From Eubacteriales bacterium (GTDB taxonomy: Bacteria > Bacillota > Clostridia > Oscillospirales > CAG-272), in NCBI GenBank assembly GCA_045612385.1, contig JAZKYZ010000022.1, forward strand, positions 12,631 through 76,630: a DNA stretch of 64,000 bases. Reading direction: 5' to 3'. Below, in pieces: positions 14,904 to 22,520 of the stretch. Made by a program: the position numbers and the translations under genes. How positions within the stretch are numbered: the first letter of the stretch is position 1; each line of letters begins with the position of its first letter. The notes beneath the pieces were generated by a model. The model saw only the letters and a list, made by a program, of their open reading frames with translations, was not told the origin of the DNA and searched no databases.

Positions 14904-15055
14904 TGTTCTACCTCCATTTAAATTCAAATAAAAAATCCCTTCCGGCATAAAGACATAACTATACCGAGAAAGGACACACAAACAAAATATTTGATTTGAT
15001 GTCGCCTCGGCAGGAAAGCTATGCTTTTACTGGAACCTGCTGTCTTAGGATAACA
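14904..15055 (-). promoter_or_regulatory. ribosomal protein L10 leader (autoregulatory attenuator), putative
   Basis: About 150-nt 5' UTR between a consensus promoter and rplJ. It contains CCUAAGACAGCAGG...CCUGCCGAGG helices and a terminator-like hairpin (UCCUUUCUCGGUAU/AUGCCGGAAGGGA) followed by U6 just before the SD. Confidence 0.55.
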
Positions 15056-15060
15056 CAAGT

Positions 15061-15089
15061 ATTATACACGATTGAACGCTGTTTGTCAA
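15061..15089 (-). promoter_or_regulatory. consensus promoter for rplJL
   Basis: Minus strand: TTGACA (15089-84), 17-nt spacer, TG-extended TATAAT (15066-61). Confidence 0.75.
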
Positions 15090-19582: not shown

Positions 19583-19662
19583 GGGACGGATGCAGACCAA
19601 TATGCTTGCTTTGCAAGCATTTGTTCCGAAGTGCGCTACCCCTGCCAAAACAAAAGGACGCA
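19583..19662 (+). repeat. 80-nt palindromic pseudo-tRNA element, copy A
   Basis: 77/80 identical to copy B. The centre is a perfect palindrome, ATGCTTGC-TTT-GCAAGCAT. The 3' 28 nt (19635-62) are identical to the reverse complement of 19864-91, which is the tRNA-Gln 3' end, CCA and trailer. Confidence 0.85.
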
Positions 19663-19677
19663 CAAAGGCGTTGCCTT

Positions 19678-19728
19678 CGCTGGGTTTTCGCCCTCGCTGG
19701 GTTTTCACCTTCGCTGGGTTTTCGCCTT
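19678..19728 (+). repeat. 3 x 17-nt tandem repeat
   Basis: CGCTGGGTTTTC(G/A)CC(C/T)T starts at 19678, 19695 and 19712. Confidence 0.9.
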
Positions 19729-19779
19729 CGGCGAATATCCTTGTCCCTTGCCGTTATCTCGCGAGCGGATATCGTCTAG

Positions 19780-19859
19780 GGGACGGATGCGGACCAATAT
19801 GCTTGCTTTGCAAGCATTTGTTCCGAAGTGTGCTACCTCTGCCAAAACAAAAGGACGCA
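19780..19859 (+). repeat. 80-nt palindromic pseudo-tRNA element, copy B
   Basis: Direct repeat of copy A, 197 nt downstream. Its 3' end forms an inverted repeat and terminator hairpin with the tRNA-Gln 3' end. Confidence 0.85.
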
Positions 19860-19881
19860 TTTCTGCGTCCTTTTGTTTTGG
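19842..19881. terminator. bidirectional terminator shared by tRNA-Gln and repeat copy B
   Basis: CCAAAACAAAAGGACGCA-TTTC-TGCGTCCTTTTGTTTTGG; the GC core is flanked by U-runs in both orientations. Confidence 0.8.
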
Positions 19882-19953
19882 CAGGGGTAGCTGGATTCGG
19901 ACCAACGAATGCAGGAGTCAAAGTCCTGTGCCTTACCGCTTGGCTATACCCCT
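19879..19953 (-). tRNA. tRNA-Gln (anticodon UUG), atypical
   Basis: The 75-nt cloverleaf is AGGGGUA UA GCC AAGCGGUAA GGC A CAGGA CUUUGAC UCCUG CAUUC GUUGG UCCGAAU CCAGC UACCCCU G CCA. CCA is encoded. It has an A1-U72 pair and C at position 55. Confidence 0.8.
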
Positions 19954-20069: not shown

Positions 20070-20098
20070 TTGAGATTTTGGCATATTCTTGCTACAAT
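20070..20098 (+). promoter_or_regulatory. possible promoter
   Basis: TTGAGA (20070-75), 17-nt spacer, TACAAT (20093-98). Confidence 0.4.
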
Positions 20099-20130: not shown

Positions 20131-20168
20131 AAAAAAGGGACACCTAAAGCTTTGGGTGTCCCTTTATC
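20131..20168. terminator. bidirectional hairpin terminator
   Basis: AAAGGGACACC/GGTGTCCCTTT stem. It is preceded by A7, which gives U7 on the minus strand, and followed by TTTAT. Confidence 0.7.
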
Positions 20169-20188: not shown

Positions 20189-20217
20189 TTGACAAAGATG
20201 TAATCTTTGTGTATAAT
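20189..20217 (+). promoter_or_regulatory. consensus promoter driving the tRNA-mimic RNA and downstream ORF
   Basis: TTGACA (20189-94), 17-nt spacer, TG-extended TATAAT (20212-17). Confidence 0.8.
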
Positions 20218-20223
20218 AAAAAT

Positions 20224-20421
20224 GTGCTAATGGTGCTTACTTCATGTGGAAAGCGCAATAAGTGCCATATTTTCACACGGGCGGTTGCTATTCGGGTTTA
20301 CTTCTAACTTGTAAGGGCCGGAGGTTGTGGGTTCAAATCCCACCCTGTCCCACAGGGCAGGTGGCGCAACGGTAGCGCACCGGAATGGTTAATCCGGAAT
20401 TTTCATCCGCCCACCTTTTTT
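20224..20421 (+). ncRNA. structured RNA with circularly permuted, acceptor-capped tRNA-like core (YrlA / bacterial Y-RNA-like)
   Basis: 5' hairpin 20230-39/20259-68. Closing helix GGGCGG (20279-84)/CCGCCC (20407-12). The core at 20322-97 runs in this order: variable AGGUU, T arm GUGGG-UUCAAAU-CCCAC, acceptor 3' strand CCUGUCC, cap CACA, acceptor 5' strand GGGCAGG, UG, D arm GCGC-AACGGUA-GCGC, A, hairpin CCGGA-AUGGUUAA-UCCGG. U6 at 20416-21. Ends are predicted only. Confidence 0.65.
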
Positions 20422-20445
20422 AAATGATTGTTTTGGGAGGGAAAT

Positions 20446-22476
20446 ATGAAAAGCATTTTTGAAAAGTTTTTATTTTCCAAAGGGTATCTTATCGGCAAAG
20501 AAGTGTCGGAATATGCTTTTGAGTACGCTTTTGCAATGGCAAATATGTTTGGCGTTCGCCTTGTGCGTGGGCGTGAATATGCTTCGCAAGAGCATTTGGA
20601 ATTTCTGTCGCAAGAAATGGGCCGAGATGTACCTCCCTCTTTTTATCGTGGTTTCCCTGAGAGTGTAAAAAAACTCTCACGCGCCGAACTTTTCTTTGAC
20701 CAACTCCTCCATTATACCAAAACATACGGTTTTGGAGATTTTGAAAATCCTGATTATTCACGGTTTGAGGAAGATTTTGAGAGATGCGCTTTTAAGGAGG
20801 ACGTCACCCCTCGTGATTTTTCTATAATTAAAGAAGAAGAAGCCAAAGAGATTCTCACGTCGTTTGTAGAAGCGTTGCTGAATGGCTCGCGCCCACTCTC
20901 CACCGACCAATATAATGTGGTTCTGTCCTACTACAAGGAATACGAAGCTCTGCCCTGCGCTCCACACGCAAAGAATACAGCCATTCGTCTGTATGTAGAT
21001 ACCGGTGTGCTTGATTTTTGCGATTCGCTCTGGCTCTCAGACGTCATCAAGGTATGCGCCGAGATACAATATCGCAAGTATTTCAGCGAGGATCTTTGTG
21101 ATTTGCACCTGAAGGGTGCTGATAGAAAACTTCTTGCCGACCTCATTCATAAATTGATTGCTGATGGCAAGAGCAACATCACCGAGTGTTACGAAAAGAA
21201 GAAACTGTGGCAGGGAATGCTCCATCACATTCACCTGAAACCACAGAGCGAAGAGGAAATCGAATTCCTGAAGGCGATGCGTACTCGTGGAAATCACTCC
21301 ATCTATTCCACCGTAGAGCGCGCGCTTAAAAAGGGGGATATCCCCTTTGCCGTAACGACACTGTATGAAGGCAAGGGTGGTGGCGCTGTGCTTCGCGAGC
21401 TCAATTATCTCGTCAGTCGCGCCGAGGACAAAAACGATATTCGCTTTATTCTCTCACATATAGACGCCTCCCCAATTTTGCTCTTACAGTTATATTTGTC
21501 CTATATCACTTACGCCTTTGAGGGTGGCAGAGTTTTCCGTTTCACAAGATTTAACAGACTTTGCACGCACAATGAAACCGAAGAAGAAATTGAACACCGT
21601 CGCTCCAGACTGGATGAGAAAACGGTCGCATATCTGCGCGAATACTGCGAGGAAAAATTAAAGGAAATTCTCTGTGGCAAGGTAGGAAAGGTATACATTG
21701 ACAAGGAGATGTATCAAATCGCTCTGCCGATTTCCGAAGCGAGCACTAAGGGTGGCATAGGCGTTCTCCCACGTGGCTCACGCTTGCCCCTGCCAAAGGG
21801 AAAGAAAATACGCGCCTTCACCTATTGGGAGCAGGTCAACGACATTGACCTTTCTGTGCTCGGCTTTTCAGAGGACGGAACAATGAGCGAGTTTTCCTGG
21901 CGCACAATGTGGGAAAATCAAGGAAAATGCATCACCTTCTCAGGTGACCAGACCTCTGGCTTCCAGGGTGGCTCGGAATATTACGATATCGTATTTGACG
22001 CATTTACCAAGAAATATCCCAATACAGCGTACCTTGTCTTTGCTAACAATGTCTTTTCAAATATGCATTTCAATGAATGCGTATGTCGCGCAGGTTATAT
22101 GATGCGTGATACTCGTGATAGTGGACAGGTATTTGAGCCAAAGACGGTGGAATCGTCCTTTGTGATAGACGCCGACAGCACCTCAGCGTACCTTTTCGGC
22201 ATTGACCTGCTTCGGCGTGAGTTTGTTTGGCTTAATATGGCGAATCGCTCCGAGATGCACATTGCAGCGCTTCAGAACGCCTCCTTCCTTCTCGATTACT
22301 TCCATATCACCGAGCATATGAATGTCGGCAAGTTTTTTGAATGGATGGCAAAAGAGGTGGTTTCCGACCCGATGGACGCCGATATTGTCCTTGCTACGCA
22401 CGAGGTGCCACACCGTGAAGATGCTGAAGTAATCCGTCGTTTTGAATACGAAAAGATCCTCAAATATTTAGGATAA
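20446..22476 (+). CDS. 676-aa protein: N-terminal helical TROVE-like (Ro60/Rsr-like) region fused to a C-terminal TerD-fold domain
   Basis: SD GGGAGGG lies 4 nt before the ATG at 20446. Residues ~455-600 fit the TerD pattern (FTYWE..DIDLSVLGF..FSW..ITFSGDQTSGFQGGSEYYDIVF..YLVFANNVFS..CRAGYM..SAYLFGIDLLRREFVWLNM). Residues 225-355 carry TROVE-like motifs in order. The CDS itself is confident; the domain assignment of the N-terminus is inferential. Confidence 0.6.
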   Translation: MKSIFEKFLFSKGYLIGKEVSEYAFEYAFAMANMFGVRLVRGREYASQEHLEFLSQEMGRDVPPSFYRGFPESVKKLSRAELFFDQLLHYTKTYGFGDFENPDYSRFEEDFERCAFKEDVTPRDFSIIKEEEAKEILTSFVEALLNGSRPLSTDQYNVVLSYYKEYEALPCAPHAKNTAIRLYVDTGVLDFCDSLWLSDVIKVCAEIQYRKYFSEDLCDLHLKGADRKLLADLIHKLIADGKSNITECYEKKKLWQGMLHHIHLKPQSEEEIEFLKAMRTRGNHSIYSTVERALKKGDIPFAVTTLYEGKGGGAVLRELNYLVSRAEDKNDIRFILSHIDASPILLLQLYLSYITYAFEGGRVFRFTRFNRLCTHNETEEEIEHRRSRLDEKTVAYLREYCEEKLKEILCGKVGKVYIDKEMYQIALPISEASTKGGIGVLPRGSRLPLPKGKKIRAFTYWEQVNDIDLSVLGFSEDGTMSEFSWRTMWENQGKCITFSGDQTSGFQGGSEYYDIVFDAFTKKYPNTAYLVFANNVFSNMHFNECVCRAGYMMRDTRDSGQVFEPKTVESSFVIDADSTSAYLFGIDLLRREFVWLNMANRSEMHIAALQNASFLLDYFHITEHMNVGKFFEWMAKEVVSDPMDADIVLATHEVPHREDAEVIRRFEYEKILKYLG

Positions 22477-22481
22477 AAATG

Positions 22482-22520
22482 TCCCCACTGATGATTCGTT
22501 CGGTGGGGATATAATTTTTT
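22482..22520 (+). terminator. intrinsic terminator
   Basis: TCCCCACTG/CGGTGGGGA stem followed by a T-rich run (ATAATTTTTTATTTT). Confidence 0.8.

Follow-up and report, generated by a model that had tools for sequence, protein, structure and literature searches.

A Clostridial Protein Family with a TerD-like Domain Encoded Next to Y-like RNAs: A Candidate Counterpart of the Ro60/Rsr Particle

Organization of the Locus

The locus described here lies in a stretch of 64,000 nucleotides (nt) from contig JAZKYZ010000022.1 of an Eubacteriales bacterium, which is called the window below. An open reading frame (ORF) on its plus strand encodes a protein of 676 amino acids (aa) and is preceded by two small structured RNA modules on the same strand. 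The protein carries a TerD-like domain on its C-terminal side, the longer RNA resembles the Y RNA family YrlA, and relatives of the gene and of the RNA were found together in Clostridia and in large phages. Ro60–Y RNA particles are studied as RNA quality-control machines and as autoantigens in lupus and Sjögren's syndrome, and the canonical Ro60/Rsr protein consists of a TROVE domain and a vWA domain. An initial annotation of the sequence had described the 676-aa protein as a Ro60/Rsr-like TROVE protein in which a TerD-fold domain replaces the vWA domain, and had proposed that it forms a new variant of the Ro–Y RNA particle with the adjacent tRNA-mimic RNA.

The ORF extends from 20428 or 20446 to 22476, and translation from the ATG at 20446 gives the 676-aa protein. 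The sequence GGGAGGG precedes that ATG. Because an identical 676-aa protein is present in the protein collection, 20446 was taken as the true start, and the ORF of the initial annotation is a real gene. The parts of the transcription unit and of the protein are listed in Table 1. From a predicted start near 20224, transcription would cover both RNA modules and continue by read-through into the protein gene. The interval from 20421, where the 3′ end of the RNA lies, to the ATG is too short for a second promoter. The U-tract behind the long module is likely the 3′ end of a small RNA or an attenuator.

Table 1. Positions of the predicted features of the locus in the window.
Feature	Position	Strand	Basis
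Promoter, sigma-70 type, TTGACA-17 nt-TATAAT	20189–20217	+	12/12 matches to consensus
Short Y-like RNA module, hairpin type, without tRNA-like part	20224–20277	+	Model R1, 17.7 bits
Long Y-like RNA module	20278–20418	+	Rfam YrlA, 37 bits; model R1, 99.7 bits
U-tract right after the closing stem of the long module	20416–20421	+	Sequence
Ribosome-binding site GGGAGGG, 4 nt ahead of the ATG	20435–20441	+	Sequence
Coding sequence of the 676-aa protein, large uncharacterised family	20446–22476	+	ORF and identical database protein
Small α/β unit (residues 1–60) and highly conserved segment (residues 61–116)	20446–20793	+	AlphaFold2, conservation
α-Solenoid (helical-repeat) region, residues 117–355, about 14 helices	20794–21510	+	AlphaFold2
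Weak TROVE-like stretch, residues 257–324	21214–21417	+	hhalign; 1.9–11.4%, below accepted thresholds
Linker, residues 356–440: two β-hairpins and a long helix	21511–21765	+	AlphaFold2; core common to NF041916 and PHROG 33734
TerD-like β-sandwich, residues 445–605	21778–22260	+	hhalign against TerD profile
C-terminal α/β tail, residues 613–676	22282–22473	+	AlphaFold2
Intrinsic-terminator-like hairpin with T-run, closing the transcription unit	22479–22512	+	Sequence

Sequence and Structure of the Upstream RNAs

When the upstream region was searched with Rfam in E-value mode, YrlA (RF02553) was the only non-trivial match, with E = 1e-5 at 20278–20416 over the full model (positions 1–114) and a score of 37 bits, the gathering score being 69. 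At the gathering score, YrlA was found neither in the whole window nor in 16 homolog loci, and at the gathering thresholds the whole window gave only tRNA-Gln and an L10 leader. The elements of the Clostridial RNA follow each other in the same order as in YrlA, namely closing stem, handle helix, T-arm, variable stem and D-arm, whereas the score below the gathering value, the sequence of the handle and the protein family differ. The adjacent tRNA-mimic RNA claimed in the initial annotation therefore exists, since it was detected both by YrlA and by the covariance model R1, which was derived from the Clostridial RNAs themselves.

The motif GCTA-N7-TTACT occurred in one to three copies on the strand of the gene in 63 of 76 regions upstream of homologs, compared with three matches on the opposite strand. 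In 39 of 75 regions, a T-loop like that of a tRNA came after it. The possibility that these T-loops belong to ordinary tRNA genes was rejected, as ARAGORN called a tRNA in one of the 76 upstream regions. Furthermore, 25 full-length upstream elements were aligned by MAFFT without structural guidance and were folded with RNAalifold. The resulting structure runs from an outer stem of 6 base pairs (bp) through an internal loop, formed by 5′ (A)GCUA and 3′ GAUAUC, to an 8-bp helix, a single-stranded UACUUC, the T-arm, a variable hairpin and the D-arm. Compensatory double changes were present in 23 of the 30 pairs, and 96.4% of the cells could pair compared with 39–44% when the partners were slid; the observed values were reached by none of 500 shuffles. 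The pair statistics also held over all 105 R1 matches, long and short. In the long module of the window, the outer stem is GGGCGG/CCGCCC and the internal loop is (UU)GCUA / AUUUUCAU, which is followed by the helix UUCGGGUU/AAUCCGGA, UACUUC, the T-arm GGUUCAAAUCC, the variable hairpin and the D-arm GGCGCAACGGUAGCGC.

About half of the R1 matches were short (55–90 nt) and consisted of the outer stem, the loop, the helix and a hairpin that begins with UUACUUC; such short modules recurred in many loci. The short module of the window, GCUA-AUGGUGC-UUACUUC...GUGCCAU-AUUUUCAC, carries the family signature GCTA-N7-TTACT and is also present in the closest homolog locus, L001. The outer stem, the AGCUA/GAUAUC internal loop, the 8-bp helix (constant in length, free in sequence) and UUACUUC together make up a handle that is specific for the family and occurs in both RNAs. 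The compact 55-nt handle motif is a ready reagent for binding studies.

Linkage of the RNAs to the Gene in Bacteria and Phages

Model R1 was built from the 25-element alignment and searched on both strands of the window and of 80 loci (718 kb). It gave 105 matches at E ≤ 0.01, all of them on the strand of the homolog gene. Ninety-five matches lay at most 500 nt upstream of a homolog, in 69 of the 80 loci, with one module in 46 loci, two in 20 and three in 3, and the median gap between the last module and the gene was 43 nt. The 64-kb window contained exactly one R1 match, at 20278–20418. Eleven loci had no R1 match nearby, and two of these have less than 110 nt of upstream sequence. Two loci showed an unusual layout: L066 (275–2897; labelled as a Leptolinea metagenome-assembled genome) had five R1 matches over 2.6 kb upstream of the gene, and L072 (1312–1521) had two matches 2.5 kb upstream of the gene and not adjacent to it.

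This arrangement could also be that of a cis-regulatory leader, in which the RNA is an attenuator or riboregulator in the 5′ untranslated region of the downstream gene, might sense a tRNA-binding factor or serve autoregulation by binding the protein, and takes no part in a trans-acting ribonucleoprotein (RNP). The RNAs always lie upstream of the gene, on the same strand and near it, and in the window there is no space for a separate gene promoter, as a leader would have it. In addition, a run of four or more T at the end of the last module was observed in 28 of 69 homolog loci (41%) against a background of 11.5%, and a U-tract after the closing stem is the layout of an attenuator. However, leaders are normally single, whereas here one to three modular units occur, each of them a complete closed stem structure, and 59% of the loci are without a U-tract after the last module. 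Moreover, the long unit shares homology with Y RNAs that act in trans, and canonical Y RNAs also adjoin rsr; those of Mycobacterium smegmatis are encoded upstream of rsr and are co-transcribed with it (PMC4201824). A leader acting in cis is the main rival explanation, and we consider it unlikely. Autoregulation and a role in an RNP are compatible, and a protein that binds its own leader would give feedback.

The linkage extends to viruses. All of the 14 IMG/VR viral contigs, whose homologs are 36–47% identical, had one to three R1 matches within about 350 nt upstream of the gene and on the same strand, and several of these homolog genes are embedded in phage tRNA arrays. By tblastn, homologs were also detected in the large phages LpeD, RcXuper, RpAliso, WXIN, Weasels2, XacN1, SCTP-2, S-CRM01 and S-CBWM1 and in a 485-kb uncultured phage. 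The homolog of phage RcXuper, with about 25% identity to residues 221–598 of the query, lies in a tRNA cluster and adjoins a nucleotidyltransferase. About 500 nt upstream of it, directly after the transfer-messenger RNA (tmRNA) of the phage, a Y-like RNA was found with 49 bits by R1 and 40.7 bits by Rfam YrlA. The phage copies in tRNA arrays mirror the phage-borne pairs of Ro and Y RNA. As a separate observation, the tmRNA of RcXuper (OP186293.1, L086 2104–2673) is unannotated, permuted and of the alphaproteobacterial type (2104–2520, 106–108 bits); the Y-like RNA at 2532–2673 follows it immediately within the phage tRNA cluster.

The initial annotation had suggested surveying the neighbourhoods of homologs for an upstream tRNA-like RNA and for links to rtcB or PNPase. 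The tRNA-like RNA was indeed present, in 69 of 80 bacterial and 14 of 14 viral loci, while no link to rtcB or PNPase appeared. Clustering the flanking ORFs of 81 loci gave no recurring protein partner such as RtcB, PNPase or a nuclease, the best family being found at 8 of the 81. A canonical TROVE ORF was present neither in the window nor in the flanks of the 80 loci.

Tandem RNA modules, a U-tract and a protein gene are also the layout of type III toxin–antitoxin systems such as ToxIN, and the locus might be a module of this kind or another conflict module in phage defence or counter-defence. The homologs in large phages would agree with this, as would a weak PADLOC match to BrxB of the BREX system (E = 2.8e-4, 18.8 bits, residues 230–328, window 21133–21429) and a C-terminal core common to the RING-domain family NF041916. 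However, the RNA units are not identical direct repeats, as they have diverged in sequence and length, differ in the sequences of their helices and include a tRNA-like insert. Moreover, the 676-aa protein showed no nuclease signature in Pfam, NCBIfam and PADLOC, and the chromosomal neighbourhoods are of the housekeeping type and are not defence islands. A toxin–antitoxin-like role fits poorly and is very improbable. The weak BrxB match overlaps the stretch of the protein that faintly resembles the TROVE ring.

The TerD-like Domain

The C-terminal β-sandwich was compared with TerD by hhalign. The Klebsiella TerD reference sequence matched 2kxt with 419 bits and was 100% identical to annotated terD genes. 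Against this single sequence, the family alignment had a pairwise E of 8.5e-4. The motif pairings on which the initial annotation was based were reproduced, namely FTYWE with GLGWD, DIDLS with DLDAS, FSGDQTSGFQGGSE with HTGDNRTGEGDGDDE, and YLVFANN with IIFVVT. A profile made from the annotated TerD, TerE and TerZ of Klebsiella and Pseudomonas and from the Streptomyces TerD domain gave a probability of 93.6% and E = 2e-7, and domain-restricted and broader alignments reached 95.8–96.6%, the lowest E being 6e-10 across some 90 columns. The null comparisons (reversed sequence, vWA and TROVE ring) scored 10–15. In addition, a small hidden Markov model (HMM) of TerD ranked the 676-aa ORF first among 173 ORFs of the window and gave family members up to 21.6 bits. 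Pfam TerD gave weak matches, all under the gathering score (E ≥ 2.4e-4), in 3 of 49 diverse members. With the full-length model, the top 50 Foldseek matches included no solved TerD structure. The profile comparisons thus confirm the β-sandwich of residues 445–605 as TerD-like, and the motifs pointed out before are real.

Residues 445–605 correspond roughly to the first 100 profile positions of TerD (PF02342; Klebsiella 2kxt, Streptomyces 3ibz), and motifs of the GLGWD, DxDxS and GDxxxG types are present in the sandwich. The residues D466, D468, G500, D501, E511 and D514 are invariant or nearly invariant in the family. The domain differs from TerD in several respects. TerD is a stand-alone protein of about 190 aa, whereas here the domain is one part of a 676-aa multidomain protein, and the Pfam threshold is not reached. 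Furthermore, the acidic Ca2+-binding run GEGDGDDE of TerD is replaced by G(Y/F)xGGSEY, the acidic features being partly kept. No ter operon context was found, and terZABCDEF, vWA (TerF/TerY) or TerB/TerC neighbours are absent from the window.

A vWA domain was not detected in the 676-aa protein, nor was a DxSxS motif of the metal-ion-dependent adhesion site (MIDAS) type: Pfam vWA and PF25045 gave no match, and hhalign against the vWA domain of Ro60 remained at the null level. The result was in agreement with the initial annotation. It is supported that the TerD-like domain stands in the position of the vWA domain of Ro60/Rsr, as it occupies the C-terminal place, and the proposed replacement of the one domain by the other holds to this extent.

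The protein could also be an ordinary Ter-type stress protein that binds Ca2+ or a ligand, with RNAs that are unrelated to it or are tRNA relics sharing its promoter. The confirmed TerD-like domain and the database names 'TerD family protein' and, for a phage protein, 'tellurium resistant like protein' point in this direction. However, the ter operon context is lacking, and the TerD-like part comprises about 160 of the 676 residues. In addition, the RNAs accompany the gene at 69 of 80 bacterial loci, at all 14 viral loci and in a remote phage of Alphaproteobacteria, and since this linkage persists in wholly different neighbourhoods, chance or hitch-hiking is no explanation. The Ter-type reading fits poorly, and we regard it as highly improbable.

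Protein Family and Predicted Architecture

The protein belongs to a large family. Among representatives clustered at 50% identity, at least 2456 matched at E ≤ 1e-3 and 760 at E ≤ 1e-30, most of them 670–720 aa long and aligned end to end. A scan of one genome per species gave 289 loci with a relative. The carriers are nearly all Lachnospiraceae, Oscillospiraceae and other Clostridia of the rumen and gut, among them the isolates Eubacterium uniforme, E. ruminantium and Lachnospiraceae C6A11, AC2029 and AC2031. The family members have no precomputed Pfam domain and are mostly named 'hypothetical protein', with one 'TerD family protein'.

Domain searches gave few matches. Pfam found no family in the 676-aa protein even at E ≤ 10, and no TROVE, vWA or other informative domain in the protein, in 49 diverse members and in three phage homologs. 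Searches of the PDB sequences with the single sequence and with the profile yielded nothing relevant (DegV and Nup188 at E ≥ 0.03). In PHROGs, the unannotated family PHROG 33734 matched residues 413–603. In NCBIfam, residues 282–608 partly matched NF041916, the MXAN_6230/SCO0854 RING-domain family, with 104 bits and E = 6e-30. The matching part starts near the close of the helical region, takes in the linker and the TerD-like domain and corresponds to profile positions 385–715. In contrast, the RING-bearing N-terminal part of this 842-position profile is absent from the 676-aa protein, which has no RING domain and stays below the curated cutoff of 600 bits. Full-length structural matches in BFVD were a 'tellurium resistant like protein' with a template modelling (TM) score of 0.81 and a protein of Campylobacter phage IBB35 with 0.59.

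An AlphaFold2 model was built from 52 homologs, with a mean predicted local distance difference test (pLDDT) score of 81 and a predicted TM score (pTM) of 0.73. The initial annotation had taken the N-terminal 440 residues to be all-helical. In the model they are mostly, but not wholly, helical, because an α/β unit is present at residues 1–60 and β-hairpins at residues 356–440. The segment of residues 61–116 has the consensus VPxPFYRGFPxSV...DQLLHYxxTYGFG, yet its pLDDT is below 50. Many of its residues (window 20626–20793) are invariant, including aromatic residues and prolines: P63, F66, Y67, F70, P71, D85, Q86, Y90, Y94, E108 and F116. To judge from the model, this segment may fold only upon binding of a partner or RNA.

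Long ORFs antisense to the homolog gene and in a codon-aligned frame were noticed in 55 of 81 loci. They reach up to 706 aa, for example at L047 3974–6091, L060 3908–5944 and L059 3926–5845, and the window itself has no antisense ORF above 90 aa. They are probably a 'shadow ORF' effect of codon usage.

Relation of the Helical Region to the TROVE Ring

The human Ro60 reference was checked (1224 bits to 9nen) and used to fetch bacterial TROVE genes from plasmids. TROVE alignments were built from the fetched genes and later widened with a divergent Rhizobium clade, which gave 35 TROVE sequences for comparison with 59 family sequences. Pfam PF05731 did not match the 676-aa protein or any of the 49 diverse members. 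With the HMMER filters off, the TROVE HMM scored near 0 for all family members and the three phage homologs, compared with 930 bits for the positive control. The HMMER check against TROVE suggested in the initial annotation was thus negative. In the Rhizobium clade, roughly half of the Rsr proteins had a match to the Ro60-type vWA family PF25045 yet none to PF05731 (P0391–P0510), and several were named merely 'RNA-binding protein' or 'vWA domain-containing protein'. Since Pfam TROVE under-detects true members, absence from Pfam weighs little either way.

A faint similarity, marginally above chance, was found by profile–profile comparison. With the full alignments, hhalign gave a TROVE probability of 2.3%, and the helical region against the ring gave 1.9% (P = 0.026), P for the two lying at 0.02–0.03. 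The broader profiles raised this to 11.4% (P = 0.0026, score 30.4), compared with scores of 10–18 and P = 0.18–0.9 for the nulls (reversed ring, vWA and TerD). The same stretch aligned each time, residues 257–324 with TROVE ring positions 182–282, and the pairings included GLLHHIHxKP with (D)xLRLxHPKP and GALLRNL with GALLRNL. A signal that grows with the breadth of the profiles is the behaviour expected of real remote homology; it is still well below accepted thresholds. Four TROVE motifs had been proposed in the initial annotation. Two of them, LWQGMLHHIHLKP and AVLRELNYLVS, came into register in the profile–profile alignment, but the other two remained unaligned.

The structural comparison gave a mixed result. 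With the full-length model, the top PDB match of Foldseek was 9kop (E = 0.013, probability 0.93, TM 0.19/0.25), a genuine divergent TROVE and vWA protein with E = 8e-31 to the TROVE profile, and Rsr of Deinococcus radiodurans (2nvo) ranked 39th. The expectation that a query of the helical region would sharpen the match was rejected. With a separate model of residues 117–440 (pLDDT 86), the match was lost: no TROVE entry (Ro60, Rsr or 9kop) was among the top 50, and all that the region matched were solenoids of a generic kind (designed repeats, PUF, PPR and 14-3-3 among them), with E ≥ 0.3. The check by AlphaFold and Foldseek was thus ambiguous, with a weak TROVE match of the full-length protein and none of the helical region alone. 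Membership of residues 1–440 in the TROVE family is not established, as Pfam and HMMER gave nothing and hhalign at most 11%, so that every accepted threshold is failed. The Ro60/Rsr-like TROVE identity of the protein is an unproven hint, and TROVE ancestry of the central helical part is a tentative, minority possibility.

Comparison with Ro60/Rsr and Proposed Function

Bacterial and phage Ro60/Rsr–Y RNA systems have been described in Salmonella Typhimurium, Deinococcus radiodurans, Mycobacterium smegmatis and mycobacteriophages. Like these, the present system has a big protein gene and, closely linked to it and encoded on its strand, small structured RNAs, one to three in number; bacteria and phages alike carry the pair. 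One RNA has a tRNA-like module with T-arm and D-arm and another is a simple hairpin; similarly, known loci encode two or more Y RNAs, of which one is like a tRNA and one like a hairpin (PMC4201824). In both systems, the ends of the RNA pair into a stem with a conserved handle for the type of protein, and the protein has helical repeats followed by a globular C-terminal domain, the two TROVE motifs having look-alikes in register. The two systems differ in the C-terminal domain, which is TerD-like here and vWA with MIDAS in Ro60/Rsr, the TROVE probability being at most 11%. Furthermore, Ro60 has nothing that corresponds to the first 116 residues, linkage to rtcBA or PNPase is absent, and the hosts are anaerobic Clostridia (Lachnospiraceae and Oscillospiraceae) outside the survey of 2014. 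Since that survey of bacterial Y RNAs was confined to genomes in which a TROVE protein had been annotated (PMC4201824), it would have missed the Clostridial RNAs.

The RNAs of the two systems share one part. Model R1 cross-detected Y RNAs next to genuine TROVE genes, with 47.5 and 35 bits upstream of rsr in Nonomuraea and 46 bits between rsr and rtcB in Rhizobium rhizogenes, and it also matched Y RNAs in Picosynechococcus and Bosea. According to the alignments, the part common to canonical and Clostridial RNAs is the tRNA-like module. Canonical Y RNAs carry GNCGAA(N)G, which is thought to be the contact site of Rsr (PMC4201824). This motif was seen in the canonical examples, such as GACGAAUG in Rhizobium, where AGCUA/UUACUUC does not occur. 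Conversely, it is absent from the Clostridial RNAs, which have GCUA-N7-UUACU instead, so that the handle consists of AGCUA, the 8-bp helix, UUACUUC and GAUAUC. The same tRNA-mimic module on another handle fits a different protein partner. In this family, the tRNA-mimic RNA is retained, while both its handle and the protein are different.

The genomic linkage gives good grounds to infer that the pair works like Ro60 and its Y RNAs. One promoter would give a short and a long structured small RNA and, by read-through of the U-tract, the mRNA. The protein would bind the AGCUA/helix/UUACUUC handle, just as canonical Y RNAs are contacted by Ro60/Rsr at their GNCGAA helix, and the tRNA-like module would tether another factor, such as a tRNA- or RNA-processing enzyme. 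Such an Rsr-like RNP is, in our judgement, slightly favoured over its contrary. In Clostridia, and in the course of infections with large phages, the particle would act in the surveillance or repair of RNA, probably of tRNA. The TerD-like domain may be a module that senses Ca2+ or a ligand or binds a partner, and the helical region would be a very diverged TROVE ring or an independent solenoid. In the fuller form of this proposal, the protein is the dedicated partner of a second, hitherto unnoticed class of Y-like RNAs, marked by this handle, in a Ro-like surveillance particle, with a TerD-type sensor in place of the vWA domain and a scaffold of either origin; this form is evenly balanced between right and wrong.

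Several observations weigh against an Rsr-like particle. The N-terminal region is not established as TROVE, with no match to PF05731 and no TROVE entry among the structural matches of the helical region alone. The handle is unlike the known Ro-binding site, so that the analogy to Ro is one of architecture only. The short module at 20224–20277, with a local E of 6e-4 by R1, is the weakest-supported part of the locus. Furthermore, no PNPase, RtcB or other effector is linked at the loci, and the pathway is thus a guess. The upstream position and the U-tract equally fit a cis-acting leader.

As for the new variant of the Ro–Y RNP envisaged in the initial annotation, the RNA–gene linkage and the TerD-like domain bear it out but the TROVE identity does not. 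In the full-text literature that could be searched, no TerD-domain or non-TROVE protein tied to Y-like RNAs was found, and the searches returned nothing on the SCO0854/MXAN_6230 family. No prior description of the combination was thus met with, as had been supposed. If the proposal is true, tRNA-mimic Y RNAs would be a modular platform, joined in the course of evolution to two or more protein families, and their tRNA-like module, as the conserved part, would offer a natural experiment on its purpose. Moreover, a big family of 'hypothetical proteins' of gut and rumen Clostridia would gain a testable function, the poorly understood TerD domain would be tied to RNA metabolism, and these Clostridia and the large phages, so far outside Ro biology, would have their own version of it.

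Other Features of the Window

The genes flanking the locus are ordinary chromosomal genes for a Na/Ala symporter, a GFO/IDH/MocA oxidoreductase, a Na/H exchanger, ribosomal protein L28, a cyclophilin and tRNA-Gln. The L10 leader (RF00557) lies at 14921–15067 on the minus strand and exceeds the gathering score with 51.6 bits; it is an ordinary leader without connection to the locus.

Just upstream of the promoter of the Y-like RNAs, a promoter-like site at 20070–20098 (10/12 matches) is followed by a strong 14-bp terminator hairpin at 20134–20165. No ORF of at least 60 aa was found between them, and the segment 20070–20171 could, judged by its sequence, give a tiny transcript or hold a peptide gene.

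A repeat region was noted at 19583–19905. It contains a direct repeat of 80 nt at 19583–19662 and 19780–19859 (96% identical), three 17-nt-spaced tandem units at 19674–19730 and a 42-nt inverted repeat, the right arm of which overlaps the 3′ end of the minus-strand tRNA-Gln (19879–19953). Each 80-nt copy ends with a hairpin and a sequence like the 3′ half of tRNA-Gln in opposite orientation. These repeats may be relics of a tRNA duplication or of integration at the tRNA. The Rfam match 'mir-3122' at 19832–19891 is the hairpin of the 80-nt repeat.

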